DNA of 64,000 nt from Candidatus Norongarragalina meridionalis (GTDB lineage Archaea; Micrarchaeota; Micrarchaeia; Norongarragalinales; Norongarragalinaceae). The stretch is taken from positions 4,370-68,369 of the forward strand of contig CABMDO010000013.1 of NCBI GenBank assembly GCA_902384935.1, given 5' to 3'. The position numbers and the translations under genes are program-made. The notes beneath the pieces are model-generated. The model saw nothing but the letters and a program-made list of their open reading frames with translations. It was not told the origin of the DNA and searched no databases. Positions 8,574 through 61,735 of this stretch are shown piece by piece; position 1 is the stretch's first letter, and each line of letters starts with the position of its first letter.

Positions 8574-9245
8574 TCAGCGCAGGATTTTCTTAAGATCGCT
8601 TACGTCCTTCAGCACGTAGTCGGGCTTCGGGCCTTTTTGCTTGCGAACTTCCCCGTATTTCGCGTGCGCGGTTTTCATGCCCGCCCGCGCCGCGCCTTTC
8701 ACGTCGCGTTCAAGTGAATCGCCTACGAAAAGTATTTCCGACGGCGAAACGCCCTTCATTTTTTTCAGGGCGGCGGCGAACGGAAGGGCGCTGGGCTTGC
8801 GCTTGCGCGTGTCCTCGAACGAGACGACGAAGTCGAACGCACGCTCGAGATTCATCGCGGCGAGCCGCATCCACGCCTGCATGCGCGGCGCGTCCGTTAC
8901 GATTCCGAGTTTGTAGCCGCGGGCGCGCAGGGCAGCCAGCGTGTCCGCCACGTTCGGATACGGGTACAGGAACCCCTCTTTTACTTTCTTGTACGCCACC
9001 ACTCCCTTGGCAAGAATCGCGTAGTCGACGCGCCCGGTTTCCTGCTTCAGGAATTTCTGGAATATCCGCTGGTCCTCGAGCCCGTGCCTGTAATAGAGCG
9101 CGAACATCCTGCGCACCGCTTTTTCGCGCGGCGTCCGCAATCCCGCGGAGCGCATGCCGTTGACGGCGGCGTCCACGCACGCGCGCTTCATCGCCATGAA
9201 GTCGATGAGCGTGTTGTCCAAGTCGAAGAGCACGGCGCGAATCAT
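8574..9245 (-). CDS. HAD-superfamily hydrolase (phosphatase)
   Basis: Motif [10 protein letters not shown] (DxDxT). Motif [12 protein letters not shown]. Size 223 aa. Confidence 0.8.
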
Positions 9246-9329
9246 GAGCGCAGAACTGCGGCGATTTTATTAACCGTTTGCTTCCTTCGCTCCGTTTGCT
9301 TTAAAAACCGCGTTGCATTAATCGCTGCG

Positions 9330-10196
9330 GTGGGTATCTTGAGGCGTCTGCTGTTGCTGATATTGGTAGCTGGCTTCGTCTCCAGCCTCACGGAGAACGA
9401 GCAGCAGGTTCTTTTCGTCAACGCTACGCAGAGGGCACTCTCGCAGCATTTCGGCGCGCCGATAGATTTCCGCTCGGTATCGTACAACGCGTATTCTAAC
9501 CAGTACGATGCCGACTACGCGGACCTCATGTACACGTTCCACATCCTTCCGGCGCGGCAGTCCATCGGCGCTTACTCCGTAAGCAAGAAAATCAACGGCA
9601 TAGAGCTTTGGATGCGCATGCGCGGCTTGTGGAATCCGCAGCCGTCAAAAACCGCGTACGATGCGGGATTCTATTGCCCGGTTTCCAACTACACTGAATT
9701 CGGACTAGAATACCATCTGGAGCAGGGAAACCTTACGGACGTCGAGGAGTTCGGCAATATTCTGACGAACGCGTGCCTCGAATTCATTTTGTCGCTGACG
9801 CAGTCGCCCTCGCCCACGCCATCCCCGACTCCTACGCCTACCCCTACGGCGGTGCCATCTCCTTCGCCTTCCCCGTCGCCAATAGCGTCGCCGACAATAA
9901 TTCCGACGCCGACTTCAACAGTTGTTCCTTCGCCGTCCCCGTCGCCTTCAGCGGCGCCGGTTGTCAGCCAGGAGCAGCCGCAGACGCGCTGGAAGCTCAT
10001 AGTGCCCTTTGATTTGCAGACAGCCGCGCTCGTCGCCGTAGTGCTTCTGCTTCCGCTCGCGTACGTCTTCATGAAGCGCAACTTCCACCACGACGCGCAG
10101 AGGAAATCCACCGCTCTCGGTTATTACCGCAACATGGCGGGCTTCCTCTCGCAGGACGGGACGAAGCGCAAGAAATTCGTGCAGAAAAAGCTTTGA
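9330..10196 (+). CDS. Secreted protein with Pro/Ser/Thr repeat linker and C-terminal TM anchor (first gene of the HydA-like operon)
   Basis: GTG start at 9330 gives a signal peptide [23 protein letters not shown] repeat [27 protein letters not shown]-terminal TM helix. The track start 9084 overlaps the HAD gene on the other strand and is rejected. Confidence 0.55.
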
Positions 10197-10197
10197 G

Positions 10198-10725
10198 GTG
10201 AGGGATTCGATGGGAAAATTCGCCGCACTTGTAATGTTGATTGCGTTCGCTCTGTCCGTTTCGGCGTGGTGCAATACCACCGGCGACCAAGCCGGGTTAG
10301 TCGCGGGATGCTGCACCGACCAGTGGGGCACCAAGTGCGATTCCTGCTCGACGGATTTGAACGGGCATGCCGTTGTCCTGAAATACAACTGCCCGAACGG
10401 CGCGTCGAGCGAGTGCTTCGCGTACAAGGTGGCGTGCAGCGTGGACAAGACGTGCACGGACGGAGCATGCGCGCCGATTTACGGGGCGACTCCGACAGCC
10501 GCGCCGACGTATTCGGTGCCGACCGCGGCACCGACGTACTCCTCCGCGACGACACAGCCGACGCAGTACCCGACATACCCGACAGCCAGCTCTACGCCGA
10601 TGCCCGCGCAGCCGATTTCAACGGACATGTTCATGCTCGGCGGCGTGCTCGTGATCGCGCTTCTCGCGGTGATATGGTTCGTCGCGCGCAAACCTGCGCA
10701 GGCGAAGAAGAACAGGAAGGGGTGA
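10198..10725 (+). CDS. Small Cys-rich secreted protein with PT-rich linker and C-terminal TM anchor
   Basis: Signal peptide (MGKFAALVMLIAFALSVSA). About 10 Cys in a roughly 70-aa domain (CNTTGDQAGLVAGCCTDQWGTKCDSCS...CPNGASSEC...CSVDKTCTDGAC). APTYS repeats. TM helix and KKNRKG tail. Confidence 0.55.
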   Translation: MRDSMGKFAALVMLIAFALSVSAWCNTTGDQAGLVAGCCTDQWGTKCDSCSTDLNGHAVVLKYNCPNGASSECFAYKVACSVDKTCTDGACAPIYGATPTAAPTYSVPTAAPTYSSATTQPTQYPTYPTASSTPMPAQPISTDMFMLGGVLVIALLAVIWFVARKPAQAKKNRKG

Positions 10726-10729
10726 GGCT

Positions 10730-11191
10730 ATGCAACTGGTCGGAATGAGCATGTGGGTATACCTGATGCTGCTGTCAATCGGCATCATGGGCATACTTCC
10801 CTTCCTCATCAAGAAGAAGCACTGCTCGGAAATGCTGAAGATGGCGTTTTTCCTCGCGCTGTTCGATTTCGCTTTTGAAAACATAGGCGCGATACAGGGC
10901 TACTGGTATTCCACCGGAAGCGCGTTCCCGCTTCTCGCGGTGCCCATAGAAGTGTTCATAATCGCCCTTGCGGCGGGCTCGGCGTACGCGCTGATATTCC
11001 CGTCCAAGTTCGAGTGGCACTTCGCAATCGCCTCGAGCCTCGTCATCGCCGCCGTGGGCACGTTCATAGAGGCGATGCTCATCGGCGCGGGCAATCTGCA
11101 CTACGCGAACGGCTGGACTTCCTATCAGGCGTTCGCGTCGTACTTCGTCGTGTTCCTGATGATGGCGCGCGTGAACGAGCTGCTTGCGTGA
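10730..11191 (+). CDS. Hypothetical 4-TM membrane protein
   Basis: Hydrophobic helices throughout and GC3-rich codons. Its stop is 5 nt before the ATG of the next gene (11196). Confidence 0.5.
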   Translation: MQLVGMSMWVYLMLLSIGIMGILPFLIKKKHCSEMLKMAFFLALFDFAFENIGAIQGYWYSTGSAFPLLAVPIEVFIIALAAGSAYALIFPSKFEWHFAIASSLVIAAVGTFIEAMLIGAGNLHYANGWTSYQAFASYFVVFLMMARVNELLA

Positions 11192-11195
11192 TGCG

Positions 11196-12308
11196 ATGGA
11201 AGAACTCGAGCGCCTGCTTTCATCGAAGAAAATCGTAGCGGTCCAGACTGCGCCGTCGGTGCGCGTGACTCTCGGCGAGGAGTTCGGTTTGAAGCCCGGC
11301 ACCGATGTCACGGGGCGCGTCGTAGCCGCGTTGCGCATGCTCGGGTTCAAGTACGTTTTCGACACGGATTTCGGAGCCGAGGTTACTGTGCTCGAGGAGG
11401 CGCAGGAGCTTCTCGAACGCCTTGAACAGCAGGAGCGCCTGCCTCTTTTTACCTCGTGCTGCCCGGGCTGGACGCGCTTCTGCCTGAAACAGTTCCCGAC
11501 GCTGGAGCAGAACCTTTCCGAGTGCAAGGCGCCGCAGCAGATTCTCGGCTCGCTCGCGAAGACGTATTTCGCGAAGAAAATCCGCAAGCAGGCGAAGGAC
11601 GTCGCCGTCGTATCGATAATGCCCTGCTTCTCCAAGAAACTCGAAGCCAAGGAGCGCGAGCATGCCATCGCAGGGGCGTCGCAGGACGTCGATCTGGTCA
11701 TAACGACGCACGAGCTCGCGCAGATGCTCAAGGCCAAGGGCATAGACCTGCGCAGGCTTTCCGACGAGGAGTTCGACAATCCTCTCGGAGTAACGGGCGG
11801 GGCGGGTGCGCTGTTCGGCGCAACCGGCGGAATCGCCGAGGCGGTTATGCGCACTGCGTATCATGCAACAACTGGCGGCGCCCTTCCGCGCTTCGAATCG
11901 AACATGCGGCCAGCGCTCGGGCAAATCAAGGAGTATTCCATCATGATGGGAGACCGGGACGTGCATCTCGCGATAGTGCAGGGCTACCCCAACGCTTCCG
12001 TAGTGTGCAAGCGCGTGCTCGAGGAAAAGCGCAACGGAATGCGTTCGCTCGATTTCGTCGAGGTGCTCGGTTGCATCGGGGGCTGCGTCGGCGGTCCGGG
12101 GCAGCCCGATACGGGCGAGGATGCGGTGCTGATGCGCGCGGCGGCACTGCACGAGCGCGATCGCCGCCTACCGCTCAGGAGCGCGCACGACAACCCCGCG
12201 GTGAAGAAGGTTTACGCGTCGATGCTCGGGAAGCCCGGAAGCGCAAAGGCTAAGAAGTTCCTGCACCGGGGGCAGCGCGGTTATGCTGAGATGCTGAAGA
12301 CGCTGTGA
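11196..12308 (+). CDS. [FeFe]-hydrogenase-like protein, H-cluster domain only (HydA-like, M1-type)
   Basis: All three H-cluster signatures are present: L1 FTSCCPGW, L2 MPCFSKKLEAKE, L3 EVLGCIGGCVGGPGQP. The N-terminal APSVRVTLGEEFG resembles the start of the H-domain. No ferredoxin-like F-cluster domain. ATG at 11196 (the track start 11184 is a TTG). Confidence 0.75.
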   Translation: MEELERLLSSKKIVAVQTAPSVRVTLGEEFGLKPGTDVTGRVVAALRMLGFKYVFDTDFGAEVTVLEEAQELLERLEQQERLPLFTSCCPGWTRFCLKQFPTLEQNLSECKAPQQILGSLAKTYFAKKIRKQAKDVAVVSIMPCFSKKLEAKEREHAIAGASQDVDLVITTHELAQMLKAKGIDLRRLSDEEFDNPLGVTGGAGALFGATGGIAEAVMRTAYHATTGGALPRFESNMRPALGQIKEYSIMMGDRDVHLAIVQGYPNASVVCKRVLEEKRNGMRSLDFVEVLGCIGGCVGGPGQPDTGEDAVLMRAAALHERDRRLPLRSAHDNPAVKKVYASMLGKPGSAKAKKFLHRGQRGYAEMLKTL

Positions 12309-12318
12309 GGCGAGAATA

Positions 12319-12858
12319 ATGGGTTTTGCATTCGAATTTCCGTTTTCAGGAGCCGACGAGAACGTCCGCGTCCTTTTTTATTCGGCGGTAGCGTTCTTCG
12401 TCCCGTTTTTCCTTGACGGCCCGCAACTTCTCGTAGGCACGATAGTGAACGCGATGCTCGTCACGTGCGCGTTGGACGTGCGCGGCAACCGCGTGCTTCC
12501 CGTGATTTTCCTTCCGTCGATAGCGGCTGTTTCGCGCGGACTGATTTTCGGCCCGTTCACGCCTTTCCTGGCGGTGATGATGCCGGTGATATGGATTGGC
12601 AACGCCACGCTCGTTTTCGGAATACGGAGACTCGTGAGCCGCAACGTAAACGCAGTCTCCTCCGTCGCGGTCGCCGCATGCGCCAAATCCATCGTGCTCT
12701 TCGCGGCAGCCTATGCATTGGTTGCGACCGCTGCGCTTCCCGCACTGTTCCTGACGGCGATGGGTGCGGTGCAGCTCGCAACTGCCGTGATGGGCGGCGG
12801 GGTTGCGTTGTTTCTCCGCAACGCTTTAATGCGTCCGCGCCGTAACGCTTCTGGATGA
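12319..12858 (+). CDS. Hypothetical polytopic membrane protein (about 5-6 TM; ECF-S-component-like size)
   Basis: 179 aa, very hydrophobic. Its stop overlaps the start of the downstream radical SAM gene (ATGA). Confidence 0.5.
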   Translation: MGFAFEFPFSGADENVRVLFYSAVAFFVPFFLDGPQLLVGTIVNAMLVTCALDVRGNRVLPVIFLPSIAAVSRGLIFGPFTPFLAVMMPVIWIGNATLVFGIRRLVSRNVNAVSSVAVAACAKSIVLFAAAYALVATAALPALFLTAMGAVQLATAVMGGGVALFLRNALMRPRRNASG

Positions 12859-13550
12859 ACCTGCACTTCGCAAGCATGGTTGACGATGATCCGTCTGCTT
12901 ATCCTCGGAAGCGCTCTTCCGTGATATTCCTGTGCGGATGCCCGCTGAAATGCGGCTTCTGCTGCCGCCCCGAGCTTCTCGACACCTCGTCGTGCGGCGA
13001 GGAGCCTACGTCGTTTTTCAGCCGCCATTTCGCCGAAACGAAGCCCGAGGCAGTCGTCTTCGCCGGAGGCGAGCCGCTGATGCAGGGGAACGCGCTCCAC
13101 GAGCTATGCATGATTCTGGCGAAGCAGCAGCGCGTTTCCGTAAAGATAGACACGTGCGGCTACTATCCCGATGCGCTCGCGGATTTGCTTCCGTTCCTCT
13201 CGTACGTCTCGCTCGACATAAAGACGCGACTGAAGCAGAATGACTACGCCGAGATGACGGGTTTCGAAGGCAACCCCGAGCTCCTGCTCAGCAATGTCCT
13301 GCGCTCGCTCGCTTTTCTCGAGAAGCTCGGCAGCCACGTGTTCAAGGAGTTCCGCTTCACGATAGTCGAAGGAAAGAACGACGACGCGGAAATCGCCGAG
13401 AGCGTGGCGAAATACGTCGCTCCTTACTGCGACCGCTTCCTCGTCGTGGCGGATGACCGGAACAATGCGCTTCCCATAGCGCAAGCGTGCCGCAAGCACG
13501 TGCAGAACGTTGCGTTGCGCACCCCGCAGGCAGAGGAAAAGGTCTTCTGA
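12855..13550 (+). CDS. Small radical SAM protein, glycyl-radical-enzyme activase-like (PflA/NrdG/QueE-like)
   Basis: CxxxCxxC cluster (CGCPLKCGFCC) about 25 aa from the N-terminus. GGEPL motif. 231 aa, typical of NrdG/QueE-size activases. Confidence 0.6.
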   Translation: MNLHFASMVDDDPSAYPRKRSSVIFLCGCPLKCGFCCRPELLDTSSCGEEPTSFFSRHFAETKPEAVVFAGGEPLMQGNALHELCMILAKQQRVSVKIDTCGYYPDALADLLPFLSYVSLDIKTRLKQNDYAEMTGFEGNPELLLSNVLRSLAFLEKLGSHVFKEFRFTIVEGKNDDAEIAESVAKYVAPYCDRFLVVADDRNNALPIAQACRKHVQNVALRTPQAEEKVF

Positions 13551-13584
13551 AGCGTTTTTAACATTTTCCGTGCAGTATTAGTTA

Positions 13585-13713
13585 ATGGGTTCCGAAACGC
13601 TCCCGTACCTCCTGTTCGCCATCGCCGTAGCCTATTGGCTGAACGACCAGGGGCACATCGGCGACACGGACTGGCTCCTCCTGCTTTTCATCCTAATCGC
13701 CGTCCTTTGCTAG
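13585..13713 (+). CDS. Possible 42-aa single-TM membrane peptide
   Basis: ATG..TAG small ORF (MGSETLPYLLFAIAVAYWLNDQGHIGDTDWLLLLFILIAVLC) with GC3-rich codons. It is below the ORF-track size cutoff. Confidence 0.25.
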   Translation: MGSETLPYLLFAIAVAYWLNDQGHIGDTDWLLLLFILIAVLC

Positions 13714-13902
13714 CCGCGCAATCGCTTTTTATAATCCGCCGCGCAAATAATAGCAGTGATGAAACTGTCCCAGACGGAGTTTCGAAAGAAACTGTGACGA
13801 ACGGAGTAGCTTCTGATGAAAAATTACTTTGCGGCGAGCCAGCATAGGCCAGCATGGCTCCGTGCCGCAAAGGGATTTTAATCCTGACTTCCTCGCATTC
13901 CC

Positions 13903-15450
13903 ATGCGCAATTTCTTCAACCGCGTCCTGCTTACCGCGGCTACCGGCGTCCCCGAAAAGGCGGAGAAAAAGCTGGCTGCCGCAGGCGGACGTTTCGGGGA
14001 AAGCATCTCGGCGAACTGTTCGGCGGCGAGGAACGCGCTGCCCCTGTGCCAGGACACGGGCTATCACGTCGTCTTTTTGGACGTGGGACCGCGATGCGGG
14101 ATTAATGTGGCGGAGACGGTTCGCGACATCCGCGCCTCCTTGCGTTCCGTTTCCTCATCGCTTCCGTTGCGTCCCCGCATTCCGAATCCCTTTTCCAAGA
14201 AATTCGCCGAGGGCAACGTCGGATTCGGCATGCCCGACGTGAGAATTTCCGTCGACGGAACGCTAGGTTCGGCATGGCGCGTCTCCGTGCTGCAAATCGG
14301 CGGCGGGGCGGAGGATCAGAGCGCGTACGCGGTAGGCACGTATGACGACAACGACGCAGAAAAATGCATAATGCGCATTGCTCTCGACGCCGTCCGTTCC
14401 GCCGGGGGGAAAGGTTGCCCTCCGTATTGGGTTGCAATTGGTTTGGGAGCAACCAGCGCAATCGCCTGCGGAAACGCGGAGCGCGCCTTCGTTGACAAAT
14501 TCATAGGCAGGACGCAGGAGCCCGCGTTTGAACGCCGCCTGCTGCGCGACATCAACGCTCTTGGCGTGGGAGTCATGGGACTGGGCAGCGGAAAAACCGC
14601 GCTCGACGTGGCGCTGCGTTGGACGGGCGGACCGCACCAGAACGTTTGCGTGAAAACGCTGTGCTGGGCGCTGCGGCTGTGCGTTGTCGAAGTGAAAGGA
14701 AAGAACGTTCGGTGCATAACGCATCCGTCGAAAACGACGGAGTTCCAAGCTGCATTCGACGGCAAGAAATCATTGACGGAGAAACCGGCATTAATTCCCG
14801 CAGTTTCCGGAAAGCCGTTCTCCGTTATTACGAGCCTGCGCGCCGGGGATTTCGTTTCCCTGCGCGGCGACTTCCTGACGATGCGCGACAGGGCGTACGT
14901 TCTTGTTCGACGCATTCCGCAGAATGCGTCCAGCAGGGCGAAGAAAACCAGAATCGCAACGCCTGCGGCAATCTATCATTGCGGCCCGGTTGTGAAGAAC
15001 GGCCGCGTGGTTGCCGCGGGACCCACGACGAGCGCCCGCTTCGCCGAGGGAATCGCGCTCATGGCGGGGCGCGGGACGAAGATATTCATAGGAAAGGGAG
15101 AGCTGCCGAAGAAGGCGGTCGACGCTCTGCGCAGAAAGCATGCCGTCTATCTTCTTGCGTGCGGTGGATGCGGCGCGCTTTACGGCTCGCAGTTTTCGAT
15201 TTCCAAAAGATACTGGAGCGAGCTGGGAATGGCGGAATCGCCGTGGCTGTTATCTTCTGAAGGTTTTGGCCCTCTCCTGGTGGCGATAGACGCGAAAGGA
15301 AGGAGCGTATTCGACGGCATCGAGCGTAAGACTGCGGGCAATTATTCGCGTTTGCTGAAGAAGCTGCGTTTGGAAGGAAATTGGGCGTATGGGGGCGTGA
15401 AGGACGTCCTCGGAAGCGCGGAAACCGCCAAGCGGCTCGCAAAGTATTAA
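13903..15450 (+). CDS. Class I (Fe-S) fumarate hydratase / tartrate dehydratase, fused alpha+beta domains
   Basis: CQDTGY motif of the FumA/TtdA catalytic domain in the N-terminal half. The C-terminal half resembles the beta subunit (FumB/TtdB). Single 515-aa polypeptide. Confidence 0.7.
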   Translation: MRNFFNRVLLTAATGVPEKAEKKLAAAGGRFGESISANCSAARNALPLCQDTGYHVVFLDVGPRCGINVAETVRDIRASLRSVSSSLPLRPRIPNPFSKKFAEGNVGFGMPDVRISVDGTLGSAWRVSVLQIGGGAEDQSAYAVGTYDDNDAEKCIMRIALDAVRSAGGKGCPPYWVAIGLGATSAIACGNAERAFVDKFIGRTQEPAFERRLLRDINALGVGVMGLGSGKTALDVALRWTGGPHQNVCVKTLCWALRLCVVEVKGKNVRCITHPSKTTEFQAAFDGKKSLTEKPALIPAVSGKPFSVITSLRAGDFVSLRGDFLTMRDRAYVLVRRIPQNASSRAKKTRIATPAAIYHCGPVVKNGRVVAAGPTTSARFAEGIALMAGRGTKIFIGKGELPKKAVDALRRKHAVYLLACGGCGALYGSQFSISKRYWSELGMAESPWLLSSEGFGPLLVAIDAKGRSVFDGIERKTAGNYSRLLKKLRLEGNWAYGGVKDVLGSAETAKRLAKY

Positions 15451-21786: not shown

Positions 21787-23490
21787 ATGAGGAATTCCGT
21801 TCTGATGATAGTCGCGCTTTTGTGCGCCCTCCCCGCTTTTTCGTTCGCGGCGAATTCGGTTACGACAATTTCTAATGTTATCGACATCTCGTACACCGGC
21901 ACCAAGCCGCTGACCGCGAATTATCCGGGGCTCGAGACCCTGACTGCGGGAATCACCGATTCCGAAAACTCCCTGATTCTTTTCCAGAAGTTTACGCTGA
22001 GCAGCAGCGGCAGTCCTACGGACGCTTCGGGCACCGTAACCCTGACTGGCCACTATCTCGACATCGACGTCAAAACCATCGATATGCGCCAGCTGCAGAA
22101 CAAGCTCGGGAACAGCGATCCAAAGGAAAAAATCACGCCGAAATCCTTCTCGATAAGCGGCGTAAAGGCGGTCGCTTTCATAAACAACGGCTTCAGCGGC
22201 TATGCCACGCGCGACGAACGCGATTCGCCTAGGGAAGCGGTCTTTGCAGTAGTAGCGAAAGCGGGAACCGATTTCGGAACGCGCAAACGCGAAGTCAAGT
22301 TCGCTTCCGGCACCGATTATTACGATTATGTTTCGAGGGGGCTTCCGACGATCGAGGTTATCTCGAATACGTGCCCCCCGTCTTCGGGAAAAAGCACCAA
22401 CGACCCCGTAAAGAGCTGCAAATCAGGCAGCGCATCAACCGCCTTCGCCCTTAGCACGGACACGATAAGCTCAGAAAACACGAATCTCAAGGTCACGGTT
22501 ACGGGACTTCGCTCCGCGGAATACGTATCGTATCCCAAAGGCTCAACCGTGGTGATTCGCCTGAAGTACGAAGGCGGCGGCTTCGGAAACTGCGATTCCA
22601 ACCTCTTCATGTCGGCGTTGGCAAGCGGTGGGGCTGCGTCGGCGTGCGCGCTGCAGATTGCCGGCGGTTCCGGTAGCAACATAGCGATTCCTGACGGATT
22701 TTCGGGAAAAATCATGGCGGGCGGCAAGTGCACCGCTACCGCGGTAACGAGCCTGACGAACCTCAAGACCGCGATAAACAATTACGCGGAATCGAACGCA
22801 ATAGACGAAAGCGCGGTAGTCGCTTCGAAATTCGCCACTGACCTAAATTCCGAGTTCAAGCTGCACTCGCACGACTACGAGGACACGAAACCCGTTTCTA
22901 CGAACACCGAAGCATCCCCTATAGTCGGCCCCTGCAGTTCCAAGCGCGTCTCGCTGACGCCGCAAACCTACGTGGTAATCACCAAGAACATGCCCGCGCC
23001 GGTGAAGGGAGCGGGCGTTCCTTCGTATAGCGTCGAGTTTACGGCAGCGAACCTGAAGAGCTGGCTCAAGAAGCCCGGCACATACTCCATAGAAGTCGAC
23101 GTTGACGGAAAGTATCTGGGCTACAAGCCCTTTTACGTTTCCATAGCGGATCCTGCCGGCGCGGTTTCCGCCGCGCTTTCCAGCGCGAAGGTATCCGGAC
23201 AGCTTGCGGTTTACTACCTTTCGCCAATAGGCAAGACGTACGCCACCGCCGCTTACGGGAACGTAAAGCTGGACAAGGCGGCTTCGTCGAACGACGGCAA
23301 GTACGACCTTTTCGTCGGAGGCAAGCAGATGCCGCCGTACCCGAGCCCCTTGCTCGCCGGGCTGGTTTCCGTAGGGTCCGTCGTTCAGGCCGCGGTGCAG
23401 AGCGACAACTGCAATTCGCCGCTGCTCGCCTGCAAATGCAACGGAAAGCCCGGCTGCGCCGACGTGCTGATCGCGCCCAAGACGGCATGA
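21787..23490 (+). CDS. Large secreted protein, paralog A (candidate S-layer/surface structural protein)
   Basis: Signal peptide MRNSVLMIVALLCALPAFSFA. 567 aa, Ser/Thr/Gly-rich. C-terminal Cys motif CNSPLLACKCNGKPGCADVLIAPKTA shared with paralog B. Confidence 0.55.
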   Translation: MRNSVLMIVALLCALPAFSFAANSVTTISNVIDISYTGTKPLTANYPGLETLTAGITDSENSLILFQKFTLSSSGSPTDASGTVTLTGHYLDIDVKTIDMRQLQNKLGNSDPKEKITPKSFSISGVKAVAFINNGFSGYATRDERDSPREAVFAVVAKAGTDFGTRKREVKFASGTDYYDYVSRGLPTIEVISNTCPPSSGKSTNDPVKSCKSGSASTAFALSTDTISSENTNLKVTVTGLRSAEYVSYPKGSTVVIRLKYEGGGFGNCDSNLFMSALASGGAASACALQIAGGSGSNIAIPDGFSGKIMAGGKCTATAVTSLTNLKTAINNYAESNAIDESAVVASKFATDLNSEFKLHSHDYEDTKPVSTNTEASPIVGPCSSKRVSLTPQTYVVITKNMPAPVKGAGVPSYSVEFTAANLKSWLKKPGTYSIEVDVDGKYLGYKPFYVSIADPAGAVSAALSSAKVSGQLAVYYLSPIGKTYATAAYGNVKLDKAASSNDGKYDLFVGGKQMPPYPSPLLAGLVSVGSVVQAAVQSDNCNSPLLACKCNGKPGCADVLIAPKTA

Positions 23491-23544: not shown

Positions 23545-25650
23545 ATGAGGAGGATTCTCGCTTTCGTTCTCGTCGCGGTTATGCTCGTTCCGATAGTCGC
23601 CGCGGTGCAGGCTCCTTTCAAGAACATATTCGTGTTCGACGGCAGCAGCCAGCGGGTGCAGAAGCTGTCGGACGTAACCGGCGCACCGTCGTCGGGGCCG
23701 ACCGAATCCTCCCATTCCGTGAAGTTCGCGACTCCCGTTGACATGACGGTCGCGTACATGGAAAAGGGCAAGTGCTATTACGCGAAATTCACGTCGGTCT
23801 ATTCAATCGATTTCACCCGCGAGGTGGAGTTTTACCTGCAGGAAAATCCCGTCTACGATCCGTACGGCGTCGCCCAGTCGCTTTTCGACGACCTGAGTTC
23901 AGCGTCGGGCGCGCTGCTCGACTATTCCGGAGCGAAAATGACCGTATTGACGCGTAACAAGCAGCAGTTCATACCCTACGAGAACCCGTTCTGCGAGAGG
24001 CCCGCGTTCTATTATTCCTATACGATAGATTCCCTGAAGTACCTTAAGGTCCTCACCCCGAACGTCCTGCTGAGCATGTGCCCGGGAAACTCGTGCTACT
24101 TCAATTCCAGCGTTCCCGCGACACTGAAGCTGCAGCGCGATTCCAGCGGCGACGCAACGCCGACCCCGTCGCCAAGTTCCGGCGGGCAGGCGCTCCAGCC
24201 GATTGACATGACTGGCGTCTGGCAGATAACCATCGACGGCGCGGGCGGCGCGGCGCTCATCCAGCAGCTTTACACCGCGTCCGAGGACGCGTCCCACCGC
24301 CGCACGTTCACTTACGCCATAGATTCCGCCAAGTTCACCGCGACGATAAACACGCTTACCAAGCAGACCGCGCTCGAGAACTATCTCAAATACAGTACGG
24401 CGCCACCCGAGACGCCCTCGGGCACGCAGAACCCCGTAAAGCAAACGCTCGTGCAGACGATTACGGCAACGGGCTTCTCGTATTCCGGCGGAATGCCGAG
24501 CGTGATGTGGGACGTCCAGTCGTCTTTAATGTTTAGCCACGTCGTGGACATCTCGTTCACCGTAGGCGGGAAGCAGAAGCTCGTGCGCGGCGTAACGATG
24601 ATGGAGTTTCCCGAGGGTTCGGTTGCAGCCGCCGCGGTGCAGAAGGCAATAGACGGACTCAAGTCGGGAACAGATGACAAGCGCTCCGCATCATTCCCAT
24701 CCACGGCTCTGACGGTGTATTCCGAGCCGGCTTCGTCGTCCTGCGTCACGCCTTCGGATTCGCCGCACGTGGAAATCGCCATGACGGTCACGACTTCGGG
24801 CGAATCGGTCTCGGTAACCGCGAGCGACCTGCCGAACAAGGACGCCTCTGGAAAAACAATCAGCGTGCCGGTCGAGGTTTCGTTCGAACGCTCGCCTGGC
24901 GCCCTCACGAACGACGACATGGTAGGCATTCTCGCAGTCATAGGCACCGCTGACATCAATATAGACATCGGCAAGCCGCAGACGAAATCCGTGTATTCCC
25001 GCGCAGAAGCCGAGCTTTACGATGGCGTCGGGCTCAGGGCGACGAACATAAAGCGCTCGCCGAAGATATCCGCGTTCATGCCGTCGGTTCGCGAATCCCG
25101 CGGCACCTCCTACGTGGACGGCGGCGTGCTCGGGCAGTGCAAACTCCCCGTCAAGCGCGAGTCGCTCGTAATGTCCGCCGTCACGAAATCCTCGTCGGTG
25201 TCGCTCCGCTTCGCTTCGGGCATCGTCAAGGACTTCTTCGCGCTTCCGGGACCGTACAAGGTGCGCGTCATCGCGGCGGGGCAGCAGATAGGCGAGCAGA
25301 CGATTTACCTTAATTCGCCGGACCCGACCGAGGCGGTTGCCGACGCGGTCAGGGCTGTCGGGCTGCCTGTGGGCACGAAACTGCCCGTGCAGTACCTGGC
25401 GAAGGGCGCAAGCACCGCGATATCGTACGGCTCGCTTAAATCTCTCCCACTGACGCGTTCCGGCGACAACTACGCCATAGGCGCGGCGGGATTGACGCAG
25501 AAGGTTCCCCTAGGCGAGGTGTTCGCGCAGGCGGCGAACATGGTGGCGCTCGCGGAGCCAGTGTGCTATACGGGATTCGTCGCGCCTTCCTGCACGTGCA
25601 AGGGCAACGACGCGTGCACGCCCGTATGGGTGCAGCCGAAGACGTCCTGA
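23545..25650 (+). CDS. Large secreted protein, paralog B (candidate S-layer/surface structural protein)
   Basis: Signal peptide [23 protein letters not shown]. 701 aa. C-terminal [28 protein letters not shown]. Confidence 0.55.
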
Positions 25651-27721: not shown

Positions 27722-28912
27722 TCAGCACTTTTCTTCAGTTTCTTTTCTCTGATTTAGGTTCCCTACCGCGACATTATGCCCGCCGTCGGTCTTGCATACC
27801 GCGACATACGCACCGATATCCCGTTTAGCGGTTATGCCGGTTTCCCCGCAGCTGAGAATTTCTCCGCATAAGCCGTCCTCTACCGCGACAACTTTGAAAC
27901 CCAGATCCCCTAATTCCGTCGTAGTGTTTTCCAGAAACAGAACGCGGGTTTCCGCGGTTCCGTTCGTCCTGTCCGCCTGGCGCGCCGCATTCGCGATAAT
28001 CCATTTCGGATTTCCCGTTTTGTCCGCGCAGTCCATCAGCAGCCTCAGCAGCACCGCCTTGTCCTCGTCGCGGCTGCGCTGCCGGGCGTATTCCAGATCG
28101 TAGTTCAGGAAGCCCTTGCATGCCGTCAGGTCCGCGCCGGCCAGTGCGCCTTCCATGAACCCGACGTGTTCCTTAAGTTCCGTCGTGCCGTCGAAGAAGT
28201 AATCTCCGTAGCGGGAGTTCATAATAGTGTCCGCGTATTCGTAATTTCCAGCTTCGAGCACGGAGTACGCCATTGATACGTTGTAGTAAAGAATCGTCAT
28301 CTTTTCGTTGTCATTTTTCCCCCAAACCCACAACGCCTTGGTAATCGGGTCTGAAGTTTTCAAGTGGTCTATGTAAGCGTCTGCTTCCGCGCTTTTCTCG
28401 GCGACGTTGTTCGCGAGAAGCCTCAGCGATTCCGCGTCGGTCAGAGGGGTAACCGTCAAGTTGTTGAACCTGTTCGCTGGAGCGCGCGCGAACGAAACGC
28501 CGCAACGCCCGCCCGCGCAGGAAACCGAAAAGTCCCAGTGCGCCTTCTCGTTGAAACGGACGCGGCTTCCTCCCCAGTCTTCGGAGCACTCGATGGCAGC
28601 ATCCGTCGGGCACGAAAACGAAACGGTTACGTTGCGTGCAAGAACGGGAAAAACTTCCAGTTCCCTGTAATCGGCATTTTGGAAATTCATCGTCAGTTCT
28701 GTGCCGCGCCATGTGCCTTCCCTGAACTCCGCGCCGGAAAGCGTCTGAGTCTCGCCCGTTATCGCGGCTCTCTCAAGCGCCTTCGTAAGCAAGGTGCCGC
28801 CGTCCTGCGATGGATAGTTAATGTCGGACGTCTCCCTTTCGACGTAAATCCACGCGCCGAGCAGCGCGACGATTAATGCGACTAAAATCAGTTCCTTCCA
28901 GTGCTTAGCCAC
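27722..28912 (-). CDS. Hypothetical secreted/membrane-anchored protein (N-terminal signal anchor, multiple Cys)
   Basis: MAKHWKELILVALIVALLGAWIYV N-terminal helix. 396 aa with no recognisable catalytic motif. Confidence 0.45.
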   Translation of the reverse strand: MAKHWKELILVALIVALLGAWIYVERETSDINYPSQDGGTLLTKALERAAITGETQTLSGAEFREGTWRGTELTMNFQNADYRELEVFPVLARNVTVSFSCPTDAAIECSEDWGGSRVRFNEKAHWDFSVSCAGGRCGVSFARAPANRFNNLTVTPLTDAESLRLLANNVAEKSAEADAYIDHLKTSDPITKALWVWGKNDNEKMTILYYNVSMAYSVLEAGNYEYADTIMNSRYGDYFFDGTTELKEHVGFMEGALAGADLTACKGFLNYDLEYARQRSRDEDKAVLLRLLMDCADKTGNPKWIIANAARQADRTNGTAETRVLFLENTTTELGDLGFKVVAVEDGLCGEILSCGETGITAKRDIGAYVAVCKTDGGHNVAVGNLNQRKETEEKC

Positions 28913-30654: not shown

Positions 30655-31625
30655 TCATAATAATTACGACAGAAAAATATTTATACCTTTGTAACGTGTT
30701 TAATCTATGTTTGCTCCTAATATCGGCAAAGAGTACATCGAGCCTGCTGAGCATAGCGTTTGTAAGAGCGACTGCCAAGATTTCATTCGTGACAAGTTCG
30801 GCTTGATTTCGCAGCGCGAGATGGCGCGCAGGCTAGGACTTGGAAAAACTACGGTAAACCGTTGGGCTGAAGAAATAGGTTGCAAGTTCGTTAAAAACTC
30901 TGTCGACGATGCATTCTTCGATTCCTGGTCGGAAGAATCCGCCTACGTTTTCGGTTTCATTATTTCTGATGGAAATGTTTGTTGGAATCCCCGCAAGTCG
31001 TACTGGACGCTCACGATAACCGCTTCGGAAAAGGATGTTTCCCACCTAGAAAAACTGCGTTCGTTGCTGGACTCCACAAAGCCGCTTCTTTACTCCCTGG
31101 AAACCAAGTCCTATCGTTTGATGGCGACTAACAAACGTCTATGCAAAAAACTTATGCATTTGGGCGTCTTGCCCAGAAAGTCGTTGACGGTAAGATTCCC
31201 GAAAATTCCAAAAGCATTCCTTAAGGATTTTCTGCGGGGCGTGATAGACGGAGACGGGAATGTCCGTTACGTGAAAAGAAAACGGAGCCCTTATTTCGAG
31301 ATAACGATAGCTTCGGGTTCCAAAGAATTCTGCGAGGGACTTATTGCCGCCATAAAAAGAAATTATGGAATACCTGCAAATGTTCGTAGGGCGCACGGAC
31401 ACACCTACGTAGTTCAGTATTGCTGTTCCCGCGGCGAAAAACTTGCGGAAATAATTTATTCTAACGCGACTGTATTTCTCGAAAGAAAGTACGTCGCTTT
31501 TGATGAAGCAAAGAAAAAGAGGTGTAAGCATGGCTGAAAAAAAGTTTTTCACGTCTGAGTCAGTCACCGAAGGTCACCCGGACAAAATTCCCGAATGATT
31601 TATTCGTTCGAGGATGTCTAAAATT
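30655..31625 (+). mobile_element. AT-rich island carrying a free-standing LAGLIDADG homing endonuclease gene and the disrupted 5' end of metK
   Basis: Marked drop in GC relative to the flanks. Contains the HE ORF and a 36-nt insertion in metK flanked by AAAATT direct repeats. Confidence 0.5.
30707..31537 (+). CDS. Double-motif LAGLIDADG homing endonuclease with N-terminal HTH
   Basis: Motif 1 YVFGFIISDGNV, motif 2 FLRGVIDGDGNV. N-terminal HTH (REMARRLGLGKTTVNRWAEE). AT-rich codon usage unlike its neighbours. The stop overlaps the metK ATG. Confidence 0.75.
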   Translation: MFAPNIGKEYIEPAEHSVCKSDCQDFIRDKFGLISQREMARRLGLGKTTVNRWAEEIGCKFVKNSVDDAFFDSWSEESAYVFGFIISDGNVCWNPRKSYWTLTITASEKDVSHLEKLRSLLDSTKPLLYSLETKSYRLMATNKRLCKKLMHLGVLPRKSLTVRFPKIPKAFLKDFLRGVIDGDGNVRYVKRKRSPYFEITIASGSKEFCEGLIAAIKRNYGIPANVRRAHGHTYVVQYCCSRGEKLAEIIYSNATVFLERKYVAFDEAKKKRCKHG

Positions 31626-32723
31626 TGTGACCAGGTGAGCGACGCGATACTTGATGCGATGCTGGCGAAGGACCCTGACGCGCGCGTCGCGGTGGAATGC
31701 ATGACCACCACGGGCTCGCTGATGATGGCGGGCGAAGTCACCACCAACTGTTACGTGGATATCCCGCACATCGCGCGCGAAACCTTGCGCGACATAGGCT
31801 ACACCGATCCGGAGTTCGGGCTCGACTGCAACGACTGCGGCGTCTGGACGAGCATCCACGAGCAGTCCCGCAACATCGCCGTAGGCGTCGACTCTTCGGC
31901 GAAGAAGGAACAGGGTGCGGGGGACCAGGGCATGATGTTCGGGTTCGCGTGCAACGAAACCAAGGAGCTGATGCCGCTTCCCATATCGCTCGCGCACAAG
32001 CTGACGCACCGCCTGGCGGAGGTGCGCAAGAAGAAAATCCTGGATTGGGTGCGGCCCGACGGAAAGTCGCAGGTTACCGTTGAATACGAAAATGGAAAGC
32101 CGACGCGCGTCGACGCGATAGTAATCGCGGTTCATCATAATCCTTCCGTGTCGCGCGAGAAAATAGTCGCCGACGTGATGGAGCACGTCATAAAGCCGGT
32201 TTGCGGCAATCTCGTCGACGGAAACACGAAATACTTCATCAATGCAACCGGGGTATTCGCAGTTGGCGGGCCCGAGGCGGACACGGGAGTGACGGGGCGC
32301 AAGATAATCGTGGATACTTATGGGGGAATGGGCAGGCACGGCGGAGGATGCTTCAGCGGCAAGGATCCGAGCAAAGTCGATCGCTCGGCTGCGTACGCGG
32401 CGCGCTACATCGCGAAGAACATAGTCGCGGCGGGATTGGCTGAAAAGTGCGAGGTGCAGCTTTCGTACAGCATAGGCGTCGCGGAGCCCGTGAGCGTGCG
32501 CGTGGAATGCTTCGGCACCAACAAGGTTTCCGAAGACAAGCTCTCGGAACTCATACGCAGGCACTTCCCGCTCAAGCCGGCGGACATAATCAGCCAACTG
32601 AAGCTCAAGCGGCCGATTTACCGGAAAACCGCGGCGTACGGGCACTTCGGACGCGAGGATCCCGACTTCACGTGGGAGAAAACCGACAAGGCGGAAGCGC
32701 TCAGGAAGGAAGCCGGGGTTTAG
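31530..32723 (+). CDS. metK: S-adenosylmethionine synthetase, bacterial MetK type, interrupted by an in-frame TGA at 31596-31598 (36-nt insertion); the main ORF restarts at 31614
   Basis: N-terminal exon-like piece [20 protein letters not shown] (31530-31589) matches the MetK N-terminus. After the insertion, [13 protein letters not shown]...[12 protein letters not shown]...[34 protein letters not shown] continues in the same frame. Removing 31590-31625 restores a contiguous MetK. Confidence 0.7.
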
Positions 32724-55344: not shown

Positions 55345-56802
55345 CTAAGCCGCGGATTCCGCCTTCTTCTTGACGCTTACGTCTTCGCCGCACTTGGGGC
55401 ACGTGTAGACGAAAGAGTCGGGCAGCGGGACAATCATCGGCGAGCAGTTGGTGCACATGCCCGAACCGCAGTACGGGCAGAACACGATGCGGGAGCTCTT
55501 CGAGCCGCACGTCGGGCATCCCGCGCTTTTCGATGCCTCCACCTTGACGAGATGGACGTCCTCTTTCGGCGCCTCGGCTTTTGATTCCGCGCCGCCTGCC
55601 ATGGCGCTGAGCTGCCCGAACAAATCGCTCTCCTTCGGCTCTATTTCCGGCGCTTTCTTTGGAGGCTGCCCGAACAAGTCCGACATCGTGAGTTCCTTCT
55701 TTTCCGCGGCAACCGGCGCAGCCTGCTTCCCCTTTGTTTCCTTCGCAGCCGGCGCCTCCTCCTTCGAAGTTTTAGTGTAAATCTCCTGCACGAGCAAGCC
55801 GTAATCGTCCCCTGCTTTCGCTTTCCCCGCCTCCGCCTTCTCCTGCTGCTTCCTGTAAAGCCCCTGCACGAACGCCTGCAAGTCCGTGTCGCTTGTCACG
55901 GCAGTAGGCTGCCCCTTCTCCGCGAACCACCGCGTTCTGGGTTCGGGTTTCGCCTGTCCGGGCGTTGTTTTGTAGCCCATCTCGGCGAGCATTTCCTCTT
56001 CTTCGGTAGTCGGCTTCTGCGTTTGTCCTGCCTTTGCTCCGCCGAGGTACATGCGCCGCCTTCCCGCGGCTGTTTCAGTTGGAACGAAAACCTGCCCGCC
56101 TGGCTTCTCCCTCACTATGTCGGTAATCATCTGCTGGAACTCGGTTTCGCGCTGCGCCTGGGCGGCTTTGGAAGCGTCGCGCTTCGGCGCGCCAGGAACG
56201 CTCGGAGCGCCGGATTTCTTCGCAAGTATTCCCCTGAACGGCGCGGCGATTCCGGCGATGATTTTGCCGGCGTCAAAGCCTCCTCCTTGCGAAGGGGTTT
56301 GCGCGTAGCGTCGGCGTTCGTTCGCAGCAGCGGGAGTCGCGTAAGTAATGGCGGCTGGCGCGGTTACGGGCATTGCCGCAGTTGCGGCGCCTTGCGCCTT
56401 CGCCGGCGCGGCAGGCGCCTTCTCGTCGCCTACGGCGCGCCTTATGGTAAGCAGCTTCTGTACCACCGGGCTTTTCCTGCGCGGTATTCCAACGACGACG
56501 TAGTCGGGTTTCGCAGCCATCGCCGCGACTTTAACCGCGAGGAACGCAGCCAGAACGAAAATGAAAACGAACGTAACCGCGAATCCTGCCGCCGCGGCGA
56601 CAGCTCCCCCTCCCGCTAGCACGAAATCCGCCGCTAACGAAAGCACGACGATTCCTGCGCCCACGCCGAGCGAATACGTCAGCTTCTTCCTCTGCGAAAA
56701 AAGCCGCACGTCGGGATAGTTCAGGCGAAGAAGGAGATAGCCGAGCGACACGGAACCGGCGATCAGGTAAAGATAGTAGACCGCGGCGAGCCACGCTTCC
56801 AT
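55345..56802 (-). CDS. Membrane protein with N-terminal TM helices, long low-complexity Ala/Lys/Pro-rich region and C-terminal double zinc ribbon
   Basis: C-terminal CPTCGS...CPYCGSGMCTNC...CPKCG. 485 aa. Confidence 0.45.
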   Translation of the reverse strand: MEAWLAAVYYLYLIAGSVSLGYLLLRLNYPDVRLFSQRKKLTYSLGVGAGIVVLSLAADFVLAGGGAVAAAAGFAVTFVFIFVLAAFLAVKVAAMAAKPDYVVVGIPRRKSPVVQKLLTIRRAVGDEKAPAAPAKAQGAATAAMPVTAPAAITYATPAAANERRRYAQTPSQGGGFDAGKIIAGIAAPFRGILAKKSGAPSVPGAPKRDASKAAQAQRETEFQQMITDIVREKPGGQVFVPTETAAGRRRMYLGGAKAGQTQKPTTEEEEMLAEMGYKTTPGQAKPEPRTRWFAEKGQPTAVTSDTDLQAFVQGLYRKQQEKAEAGKAKAGDDYGLLVQEIYTKTSKEEAPAAKETKGKQAAPVAAEKKELTMSDLFGQPPKKAPEIEPKESDLFGQLSAMAGGAESKAEAPKEDVHLVKVEASKSAGCPTCGSKSSRIVFCPYCGSGMCTNCSPMIVPLPDSFVYTCPKCGEDVSVKKKAESAA

Positions 56803-60063: not shown

Positions 60064-61080
60064 GTGAAGGACGCGCTGCTCTGGGAGAAGAAAGGCGAAA
60101 AAGTCCACTGCCTTCTGTGCGCACATTCCTGCGTCATTCCCGAAGGCGGCGTAGGTTTCTGCGCGTGCCGCCTGAACGAAAACGGAAAGCTGAAAACGCT
60201 CACTTACGGGAAAAGCACGGGCTTCGCTTTGGATCCGATAGAAAAGAAGCCGTTCTACCATTTCCATCCCGGCTCCGCCGTCCTGTCGTTCGGAACGCCT
60301 GGTTGCAATTTCCGCTGCCTCGGGTGCCAGAACTGGCATCTTTCGCAGTCGCCCCGCGAAAGCAAGCGCGCATTCGACATCCCCGACACGATGCCCGTGG
60401 AAATCGCGAAAATGGCTGTTCGTGAAAAAGCGGACGGCATCGCCTACACTTATTCCGAACCCACCATATTCTTCGAATACGCCCGCGACACGATTCTTGA
60501 AACCAAAAAGCTGGACAAGAAGAAATTCCACGTCTTCGTTTCAAACGGCTTTTTCTCCGAGGGCATGTGGAAGCTCTCGATGAAGGAAAAACTGATTGAC
60601 GCAATACGGATAGACCTGAAATCCTTTTCCGATAAGTTCTATCGCGAGTATTGCGGCGCCCGACTCGAGCCCGTGCTCGACTCGATCAAGCGCGTGAAAA
60701 AAAGCAAAATTCCGCTGGAACTGATCACATTGCTTGTTCCAGGCAAGAATGATTCCGCCGAGGAGATTCGTGCCATTTCCGATTTTGTCGCCTCACTCGA
60801 CAAGAACATTCCCCTGCATTTCATCCGCTTCTTCCCGCAGTACAAGGCGGGAGATTTAGGTGCGACGCCGACGGAATCGCTTTTCAAAGCCAAGGAAATC
60901 GCGCGCGGCGAGGGGTTGCGCTACGTCTACGTTGGAAATCTTGGAGGAGAGGACGACACCTTCTGCCCGAAATGCGGAACTAAAGTAATAGAACGCGCCG
61001 GTTTCTCAGTTGCACAGAATGCGCTCCGCAACGGCGCATGCCCGTCCTGCGGCGCGAAAATCGCGGGCGTCTGGGCGTAG
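60064..61080 (+). CDS. AmmeMemoRadiSam-system-type radical SAM enzyme (PFL-activase-like)
   Basis: N-terminal Cys cluster (CLLCAHSCVIPEGGVGFCACR), radical SAM CxxxCxxC (GCNFRCLGCQN), C-terminal CPKCG...CPSCG. 338 aa. Confidence 0.65.
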   Translation: MKDALLWEKKGEKVHCLLCAHSCVIPEGGVGFCACRLNENGKLKTLTYGKSTGFALDPIEKKPFYHFHPGSAVLSFGTPGCNFRCLGCQNWHLSQSPRESKRAFDIPDTMPVEIAKMAVREKADGIAYTYSEPTIFFEYARDTILETKKLDKKKFHVFVSNGFFSEGMWKLSMKEKLIDAIRIDLKSFSDKFYREYCGARLEPVLDSIKRVKKSKIPLELITLLVPGKNDSAEEIRAISDFVASLDKNIPLHFIRFFPQYKAGDLGATPTESLFKAKEIARGEGLRYVYVGNLGGEDDTFCPKCGTKVIERAGFSVAQNALRNGACPSCGAKIAGVWA

Positions 61081-61111: not shown

Positions 61112-61735
61112 ATGCCATTCCAGGGACTTTTCAAGTGGCTGATGGGTTTCTTCCGCGGAAGGAAGGCGTTCAGCCTCGGAATTTACGGGAACGTCAATAC
61201 GGGAAAGAGCACTCTTGCGAACAGAGTCTCGATGGACTGGACCGGCGAGGCGATGAGCAAGGTTTCGGAAATCCCCCACGAGACGCGCGAAGTAATCAAG
61301 AAGGAGCGCGTTTCCATCAAGGTCGATGGCAAGGAACTTACGATTAATCTGCTCGACATGCCCGGCATTGCGACTAAAGTCGATTACCACGAGTTCGTGG
61401 ACTACGGCATGTCGAAAGGGGACGCGCAGCAGCGCGCGAAAGAAGCGACGAAGGGAATCATCGAAGCTATAAAATGGCTGGAGCACGTGGACATAGCGCT
61501 CGTCGTGATGGACGCGTGCCTGGACCCGTACACCCAGGTGAACATAACGATTCTCGGAAACCTCGAGGCGAGGAACATCCCCGTCATAATCGTCGCGAAC
61601 AAAATCGACAAGAAATCCGCGAAGCCCGAGCGCATCCGCGCGGCTTTCCCGCAGCATTCCGTGGTCGAGATATCCGCGCTCAAGGGCGACAACGTGAACA
61701 AGCTCTACGAGGAAATCGTGAAGAGGGCGCGCTAA
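61112..61735 (+). CDS. Small GTP-binding protein (MMR_HSR1/Era-like family)
   Basis: P-loop GNVNTGKST. G4 NKID. 207 aa. Confidence 0.65.
   Translation: MPFQGLFKWLMGFFRGRKAFSLGIYGNVNTGKSTLANRVSMDWTGEAMSKVSEIPHETREVIKKERVSIKVDGKELTINLLDMPGIATKVDYHEFVDYGMSKGDAQQRAKEATKGIIEAIKWLEHVDIALVVMDACLDPYTQVNITILGNLEARNIPVIIVANKIDKKSAKPERIRAAFPQHSVVEISALKGDNVNKLYEEIVKRAR

Follow-up and report, generated by a model that had tools for sequence, protein, structure and literature searches.

The minimal [FeFe] hydrogenases of DPANN archaea, group A1, average 363 amino acids (aa) in length, and once matured artificially, those from Micrarchaeota (Mu) and Iainarchaeota (Ia) evolve H2 (Greening et al., Cell 2024, PMC11216029). 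Beside group A hydrogenases the same survey draws a protein with 4-6 transmembrane (TM) helices, termed hyd6TM, which it leaves uncharacterised. Of the 130 archaeal genomes with an [FeFe] hydrogenase, 122 lack HydE, HydF and HydG altogether, five have the full set and three an incomplete one, and an alternative maturation pathway has been proposed for the archaeal enzymes (PMC11216029). Here we analyse a stretch of 64,000 nucleotides (nt) from Candidatus Norongarragalina meridionalis (contig CABMDO010000013.1, positions 4,370 to 68,369), hereafter the window, and in it a block of six plus-strand genes at 9330-13550. We number these genes O1 to O6: the fourth, hydA (11196-12308), encodes a hydrogenase of the minimal class, the fifth, O5 (12319-12858), is evidently the hyd6TM of Greening et al., a name that no other paper in the literature searched uses, and the sixth (12855-13550) encodes a radical S-adenosylmethionine (SAM) enzyme, rSAM.

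We judge it probable that this string of genes is peculiar to the genus Ca. Norongarragalina and that within it hydA-hyd6TM is the conserved unit, O5 is an S-component-like protein and rSAM is an unrelated activase. This reading draws directly on domain identities, on folds and on the genes that stay together across lineages. An earlier note on this DNA had seen in the six genes an undescribed hydrogenase module; the description holds for O1-O3 and rSAM, neighbours that are peculiar to the genus, and fails for the pairing of hydA with a 4-6 TM gene, which is already published (PMC11216029). The block is thus a further example of a known DPANN minimal hydrogenase locus with hyd6TM, to which unrelated neighbours have been added, while what is new here is the S-component fold modelled for hyd6TM, together with counts that link it, in archaea and not in bacteria, to all DPANN [FeFe] hydrogenase types.

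Conservation of the hydA-hyd6TM pair

Loci in which HydA is 73-92% identical to that of the window (L001, L002 and L090-L092), a range that coincides with the genus, retain O1, O3, HydA, O5 and rSAM. At hydA relatives with 48-54% identity (P0054, P0055 and P0070) the next gene, overlapping by 4 nt, is an O5 homologue of 182-188 aa, about 45% identical to O5 and in no Pfam family, and neither rSAM nor O1-O3 is present at those three loci. This synteny comparison does not uphold the six genes of the earlier note as a co-conserved module: O1-O3 and rSAM keep company with hydA only from 73% HydA identity upwards, and four of the five partner genes are therefore not co-conserved with it. The link between a polytopic membrane protein and the hydrogenase, which the note had also drawn, stands, and O5 tracks hydA across DPANN lineages. 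We conclude that hydA and O5 are the only evolutionarily conserved functional unit of the block, the other four genes being genus-specific neighbours.

The family to which O5 belongs is large. A profile search recovered at least 626 proteins, all annotated as hypothetical, and an exhaustive search gave 800 representatives at 50% identity, 498 of them with E ≤1e-10; the named sources are Micrarchaeota, Altiarchaeota, Nanoarchaeia, Woesearchaeota and Nanobdellota. The motifs GPQLLVG..VNA, LPS..RG..FGPFT and P.IW.GN are invariant, and no domain fusion was seen among the best 150 of the 800, all of which are stand-alone proteins of 124-253 aa.

We quantified the linkage at 77 further metagenomic O5 loci, which were scored with hidden Markov models, clustering of open reading frames (ORFs) and Pfam checks. 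A hydA gene lies within 3.1 kb at 27 of the 77, with O5 directly downstream and co-directional in 15 cases and on the opposite strand in 12, and at six more loci hydB (NuoF-like) or hydC (2Fe-2S thioredoxin-like) appears at the contig edge. Only two loci have no hydrogenase gene despite at least 3 kb on both sides; at the remaining 42 no hydrogenase gene is visible and one or both flanks are too short to judge. Since many of these loci are near-duplicates from related samples, fewer independent observations stand behind the counts than their size suggests, and to that extent this weighs against our reading. Even so, the enrichment is far beyond chance for a single hydA per genome of about 1 Mb. 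A scan of genome contigs with HydA gave two archaeal loci, all others being 78 bacterial hydA genes; as a negative control, the 1.29 Mb around these 78 contained no O5 homologue.

The hydrogenases to which O5 is linked include minimal ones (about 355-390 aa), a group-E-like one of 301 aa (L118) and A3-type enzymes of 565-608 aa with hydBC, and in the A3-type loci O5 is usually transcribed divergently. In a neighbour-joining tree of O5, most unlinked members form one tight clade, and minimal-linked and A3-linked members are intermixed through the rest.

Two recurring contexts of O5 may be recorded beside these counts. In the clade L113-L166 (e.g., L149, 5953-12449) O5 sits in a conserved order of hyd6TM, an S30AE-like gene, a gene for a 260-aa protein, PheS and PheT, and the available flanks, about 6 kb at most, contain no hydrogenase; in the window, O5 has PheT 4.3 kb upstream. 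A flavodiiron protein, with ODP metallo-beta-lactamase and flavodoxin domains, recurs beside O5 at L127, L137, L140 and L141, and two of these loci have the order hydA-hyd6TM followed, at some remove, by the flavodiiron gene. This neighbour may be relevant to flavin uptake or to the protection of the hydrogenase from O2.

Fold and candidate roles of hyd6TM

The AlphaFold2 model of O5 (179 aa), built on 85 sequences, is confident and has six helices, with a predicted local distance difference test score of 90.4 and a predicted template modelling score of 0.85. Foldseek places YkoE, RibU and ThiT at the top ranks for this model (probability 0.97-1.00, TM-score 0.60-0.70), with RibU as the best match in structure. 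Lys and Arg are abundant in loops 2-3 and 4-5 and at the C-terminus, the remaining loops are uncharged, and this pattern of charged loops indicates an N-in/C-in topology, as in S-components. As modelled, O5 has the S-component fold of energy-coupling factor (ECF) transporters, with six TM helices and cytoplasmic termini. The invariant polar residues Q36, N44, W92, N95, K123, M148, Q152 and T155 are placed in the outer and middle parts of the membrane, and because S-components bind their substrates there, these residues suggest a substrate pocket. No ABC ATPase was found among the 524 neighbouring genes at the 77 O5 loci. Group II and solitary S-components are encoded apart from the EcfAA'T module or work without it. 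We posit that O5 may be a solitary or group-II S-component-like protein for the capture or uptake of a small cofactor or precursor, and that its substrate would be something that hydrogenase-bearing DPANN cells cannot make.

Several observations weigh against this proposal. The Foldseek E-values are weak and non-significant, at 0.08-1. The O5 profile has no match with E ≤10 among PDB sequences, which include those of solved S-components; O5 matches nothing in Pfam or NCBIfam, and none of 53 diverse members matches an S-component Pfam family. The S-component fold, moreover, also serves MreD and sensor kinases (PMC11109136). A transport role would thus follow from likeness of fold only, and the 4-nt overlap of hydA and O5 at minimal-hydrogenase loci fits a stoichiometric subunit equally well.

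The serious rival is a pure membrane anchor: O5 would be a docking subunit that tethers the soluble HydA to the cytoplasmic face of the membrane, and would transport nothing. The 4-nt overlap recurs in several lineages and suggests translational coupling, the gene linkage is very strong, and neither the ECF ATPase nor the T component has been found near O5, all of which an anchor would accommodate. Yet O5 offers little to dock on, since its loops span 2-9 residues and it has hardly any cytoplasmic mass, and its invariant residues are polar, intramembrane and arranged like a ligand pocket, not displayed on the cytoplasmic surface. Nor would an anchor be expected to be divergent from the hydrogenase genes, as O5 usually is in A3-type loci, or to form a clade without a hydrogenase gene in its available flanks. 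In the models of Greening et al. (PMC11216029) the A1 and E enzymes are monomers, and hyd6TM is given no assignment; the family conserves no Cys, and His in 75% of its members, which leaves it without conserved ligands for a redox cofactor. On balance we regard the anchor as unlikely.

If O5 is an S-component-like uptake protein, two substrates come to mind. The first candidate is a flavin, because RibU is the best structural match and because HydB and the neighbouring flavodiiron proteins need flavin mononucleotide; against it stands the fact that minimal HydA needs no flavin. The second, a speculative one, is a precursor related to the H-cluster, since HydA is the sole element common to all linked loci. 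In its most specific form, O5 would be a hydrogenase-dedicated solitary importer of S-component type that obtains a pre-formed H-cluster precursor or building block from hosts or neighbours. It is consistent with such an importer that O5 homologues accompany minimal, E-like and A3-type hydA and are absent from bacterial hydA loci, and that the pocket contains invariant Lys, Met and Trp. We found no paper that links [FeFe] hydrogenases to S-components, and none since 2024 on alternative H-cluster maturation in archaea. We hold this version to be distinctly improbable; if it were true, import through O5 would let DPANN archaea without HydEFG activate their [FeFe] hydrogenases, and would supply the missing alternative maturation pathway.

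The radical SAM gene, H-cluster maturation and HydA

The sixth gene encodes, as the earlier note had recognised, a small PflA/NrdG-like radical SAM protein. Its 231 aa match the Pfam families Radical_SAM and Fer4_12, and the CX3CX2C motif reads CPLKCGFC. The best family is NrdG2 (TIGR02495; 4.5e-26, with a nearly full-length alignment), the PFLA model gives 54.8 bits (cut-off 231.75), and the HydE (TIGR03956) and HydG (TIGR03955) models are not among the best 25 of its 28 NCBIfam matches. PflA is its only sequence match in PDB, and the fold is that of a compact, PflA-like activase and does not resemble HydE or HydG. Strong matches fall into about 30 clusters, and all those with a source name are from Micrarchaeota.

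Outside the genus we examined six orthologues, 38-54% identical, and saw no hydrogenase in such flanking sequence as was available. At L081, L083/L084, L174 and L175 rSAM directly follows STT3/AglB and a PF00953 glycosyltransferase (GT4); at L172/L173 only the glycosyltransferase is visible upstream; and at L082 an STT3-like gene lies directly 5' of rSAM, with the glycosyltransferase two genes further off. NucS follows within 0-2 genes in five of the six loci, the downstream gene of L175 (250 aa) being unannotated. GT4, STT3 and NucS are all absent from the window. Judged by these contexts, rSAM is, in Micrarchaeota, the orthologue of a gene whose usual place is between GT4 and nucS, and because the orthologues outside the genus sit there without hydA, its position beside hydA-O5 is a genus-specific rearrangement. 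The association of rSAM with hydA that the earlier note proposed therefore falls away, all six outside orthologues being in an aglB/GT4-rSAM-nucS context.

The most economical reading is that rSAM activates a glycyl-radical enzyme, probably the anaerobic ribonucleotide reductase, or a similar protein-radical system. Two points count against this: its NrdG2 score is 91.4 bits where the cut-off is 131.15, and neither NrdD nor another glycyl-radical enzyme on which it could act was found among the window ORFs scanned. We also note that the orthologues P0018, P0026 and P0028, all from Micrarchaeota, have lost the CxxxCxxC cluster motif and kept the other motifs of the fold, and that in the Norongarragalina clade about 23 residues ahead of the C-terminal helix are deleted.

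A more ambitious interpretation would make rSAM, possibly together with the membrane and surface proteins, an unconventional maturase of the [2Fe] subcluster that replaces HydE, HydG and HydF. The setting invites it. HydE, HydG, HydF and NrdD are all missing from the ORFs of at least 318 aa that were scanned in the 64 kb of the window, the block contains no HydF GTPase (a protein with GTPase, dimerisation and FeS-binding domains), and as to HydE, HydG and HydF the earlier note was right; its 'unconventional maturation route', too, agrees with the rarity of HydEFG among archaea that carry [FeFe] hydrogenases and with the alternative pathway expected for them (PMC11216029). Furthermore, rSAM lies directly 3' of hydA-O5 in all five genus loci, overlaps O5 in the window through a shared ATGA, and has an intact radical SAM motif. 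Against this, rSAM is linked to hydA only at or above the 73% identity of HydA, its six more distant orthologues have their GT4-rSAM-NucS contexts, and one assembly, GCA_002792935.1, carries the two unlinked: hydA-O5 is on contig PFPG01000077, and PFPG01000037 holds the rSAM orthologue in its GT4 to NucS setting. The rSAM family is represented at none of the 77 O5 loci, none of five distant hydA loci and none of the 78 bacterial hydA loci, and its strong matches are confined to Micrarchaeota whereas hydA and O5 span many DPANN phyla. Some orthologues, as noted, have lost the cluster motif, and the ATGA overlap, which is real in the window, is not kept within the genus, L002 and L091 having a spacer of about 42 nt in its place. 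The proposal of a new maturation module is unsupported, and it is very unlikely that rSAM is a hydrogenase maturase.

The window contains one small GTPase, a stand-alone protein of 207 aa (61112-61735, plus strand) whose only matches are to the G-domains of Der, Era and HydF and which scores 53 bits with the HydF model TIGR03918 (cut-off 325). It starts 31 nt after a second radical SAM gene (60064-61080, plus strand), which encodes an AmmeMemoRadiSam-system enzyme (322.7 bits with TIGR04337, cut-off 220).

HydA itself belongs to a known kind. The protein, of 370 aa, matches Fe_hyd_lg_C (2.4e-83) and Fe_hyd_SSU (3.6e-15), the latter as a small-subunit-like segment fused at the C-terminus, and group A models of NCBIfam match it strongly. 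With TIGR02512 it reaches 1.6e-103 and yet stays under the model cut-off, solely because the N-terminal FeS domains are missing. The H-domain starts at about residue 9 of 370, no Fer4 match betrays an accessory F-cluster domain, and Pfam finds no PAS or other signalling domain; the H-domain-only character claimed in the earlier note is thereby confirmed. Its best relatives of solved structure are HydA1 of the bifurcating HydABC complex (8a6t, 7.9e-95), HDCR HydA2, and CpI (about 1.8e-80). In the alignment to CpI, A230/P231/S232, E279, E282, R286, C299, C300, S319, Q325, M353, C355, K358, E361, C499 and C503 are kept, and with them all five residues of the proton path (C299, S319, E279, E282 and R286). 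The three signature motifs, defined as TSCCPxW (L1), MPCxxKxxE (L2) and ExxxCxxGCxxGxGQ (L3), read TSCCPGW, MPCFSKKLE and EVLGCIGGCVGGPGQ, and all four cluster-ligating Cys are present. The sole difference noted is a Leu at the position of CpI M497 (L3 motif EVLGC, window 12030-12080). This Leu, beside the H-cluster, also occurs in the Micrarchaeota relatives P0052-P0055, and other minimal and long DPANN HydAs retain Met. A TTG start at 11184 would overlap O3, and we favour the ATG because close relatives are of 370 aa.

HydA is an H-domain-only, M1-type group A [FeFe] hydrogenase of the class of the DPANN minimal enzymes. Turnover of H2 has been demonstrated for the homologues Mu and Ia and is predicted here. 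That HydA is instead a non-catalytic sensory or scaffold protein, as the earlier note had allowed, we find scarcely credible: the lack of accessory FeS domains, the M497L exchange and the failure to find maturases in the window might be cited for it, but the proton-relay Cys, the rest of the proton path and the four ligand Cys are intact, signalling domains are absent, and the homologous minimal enzymes of Micrarchaeota and Iainarchaeota make H2 once artificially matured (PMC11216029).

The source organism is a Micrarchaeota metagenome-assembled genome, LFW-144_1 (ERS2655293, 0.93 Mb), from a groundwater trench, described as fermenting pyruvate (PorABC), having no electron transport chain and synthesising nucleotides de novo (PMC8561730). 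We take HydA to be a cytoplasmic, monomeric enzyme whose likeliest task is to release, as H2, the ferredoxin electrons that arise in pyruvate fermentation. We considered a complex of respiratory or membrane-bound type and rejected it, O5 having no conserved Cys or His and O3 being genus-specific.

Surroundings of the pair and comparison with known systems

The three genes upstream of hydA are tied to the hydrogenase by adjacency alone. O1 (9330-10196, plus strand) starts with a GTG at 9330 inside a longer mechanical ORF (9084-10196). The protein begins with a signal-like segment, followed by a globular domain, a linker rich in PS/PT, a TM helix near the C-terminus and a basic tail; it has no Pfam family. 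O2 (10198-10725, plus strand) has a signal-like segment, a Thr/Pro-rich stalk, a C-terminal TM anchor, a basic tail and 10 Cys, and its only Pfam match is weak, sub-threshold and mucin-like. The earlier note had called both secreted; the signal-like segments are there, and with their C-terminal TM helices the two are anchored surface proteins, not free ones. O1 is 64-68% identical in the loci whose HydA is 79-92% identical, and none of the more distant hydA or O5 loci examined has it; O2 reaches 65% identity in L090, and L002 and L092 lack it, with just 86 nt between O1 and O3. Where HydA is 92% identical, O1 and O2 stand at 64-65%. Both are fast-evolving and genus-specific. O3 (10730-11191, plus strand) is, as the earlier note had it, a 4-TM protein, here of 153 aa; it matches NCBIfam NF041644 (CBO0543 family) at 3e-7 with 30.7 bits against a cut-off of 35, is 81-93% identical in L001, L002, L090 and L092, was not found beside any other hydA locus examined, and is a lineage-specific protein. 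Downstream of rSAM, a small plus-strand ORF (13585-13713) encodes 42 aa with two hydrophobic segments (MGSETLPYLLFAIAVAYWLNDQGHIGDTDWLLLLFILIAVLC), and tblastn finds it at the same position, with 70-74% aa identity, in L001, L002, L090 and L091.

All six plus-strand ORFs exist at the coordinates that the earlier note had given, and they are packed as tightly as it had claimed, with gaps of 1, 4, 4 and 10 nt followed by the 4-nt overlap at the O5 stop and rSAM start. The region and the genome have a GC content of 58-60%, against which AT-rich islands stand out. One of these, TTTAAAAA (9301-9308, plus strand), is a TATA-like box and putative archaeal promoter 22 nt before the O1 start, and a T5 run (13555-13559, plus strand) directly 3' of the rSAM stop is a candidate archaeal terminator; both were assigned by eye, the organism being an archaeon for which a sigma-70 scanner is unsuited. 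From the spacing, the box and the T-run we infer that the six genes plausibly form one archaeal transcription unit. An Rfam search of 9000-14200 returned no match.

The block is flanked by common archaeal genes of housekeeping function (PheRS-beta, MarC, HAD, fumarase, purine synthesis, exosome and proteasome). Elsewhere in the window, 31614-32723 (plus strand) encodes a bacterial-type S-adenosylmethionine synthetase, with the N, M and C domains of MetK and E-values down to 1.8e-69. Archaea usually carry a distinct archaeal methionine adenosyltransferase, and the bacterial-type MetK of this archaeal genome may reflect horizontal transfer. A free-standing LAGLIDADG homing-endonuclease-like ORF of 276 aa lies at 30707-31537 (plus strand), and four large ORFs have no Pfam or NCBIfam match: 21787-23490 (567 aa), 23545-25650 (701 aa), 27722-28912 (minus strand, 396 aa) and 55345-56802 (minus strand, 485 aa).

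The reduction of a six-gene module to a known pair saves effort that would otherwise go into rSAM, and it directs attention to O5, a protein in no Pfam family that tracks hydA across DPANN phyla and not in bacteria. How archaea without HydEFG gain an active H-cluster is the question to which O5 would speak, as a concrete candidate for cofactor supply that is cheap to test, and at the least it marks an uncurated family of transporter-like proteins.

Compared with the PflA/NrdG2 activases (TIGR02495), rSAM scores under the equivalog cut-off and has its deletion of about 23 residues near the C-terminus. HydE and HydG are radical SAM enzymes as well, but neither a model match, among the best 25 of 28, nor a cross-lineage co-occurrence with hydA connects rSAM to them. 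Unlike the ECF S-components (RibU, and the solitary BioY and BtuM), O5 has no sequence similarity to solved or Pfam members and shows no clear AxxxA docking motif, and in the literature searched no known S-component family has a consistent linkage to hydrogenase genes. HydA1 of Chlamydomonas reinhardtii, which is of M1 type and reduced directly by ferredoxin, is like HydA in having the H-domain only, without F-clusters (PDB 3lx4 match, 4.2e-78); in contrast to HydA, it has 457 aa, extra loops, maturation by HydEF and HydG, and no linked S-component-like gene.

The closest likeness is to the DPANN group A1 hydrogenases (PMC11216029), a survey that very probably included Ca. N. meridionalis, since its genome represents the species in GTDB r202. 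In common with them, the locus has a Micrarchaeota HydA that is limited to the H-domain, is about 363-370 aa long and keeps all H-cluster Cys; it also has a neighbour of 4-6 TM helices and lacks HydEFG, here among the window ORFs scanned. It differs from the other group A1 loci in its O1-O3 and rSAM neighbours, which are peculiar to this genus, and our account differs from the published one in giving O5 an S-component fold and in counting its linkage across minimal, E-like and A3 loci.

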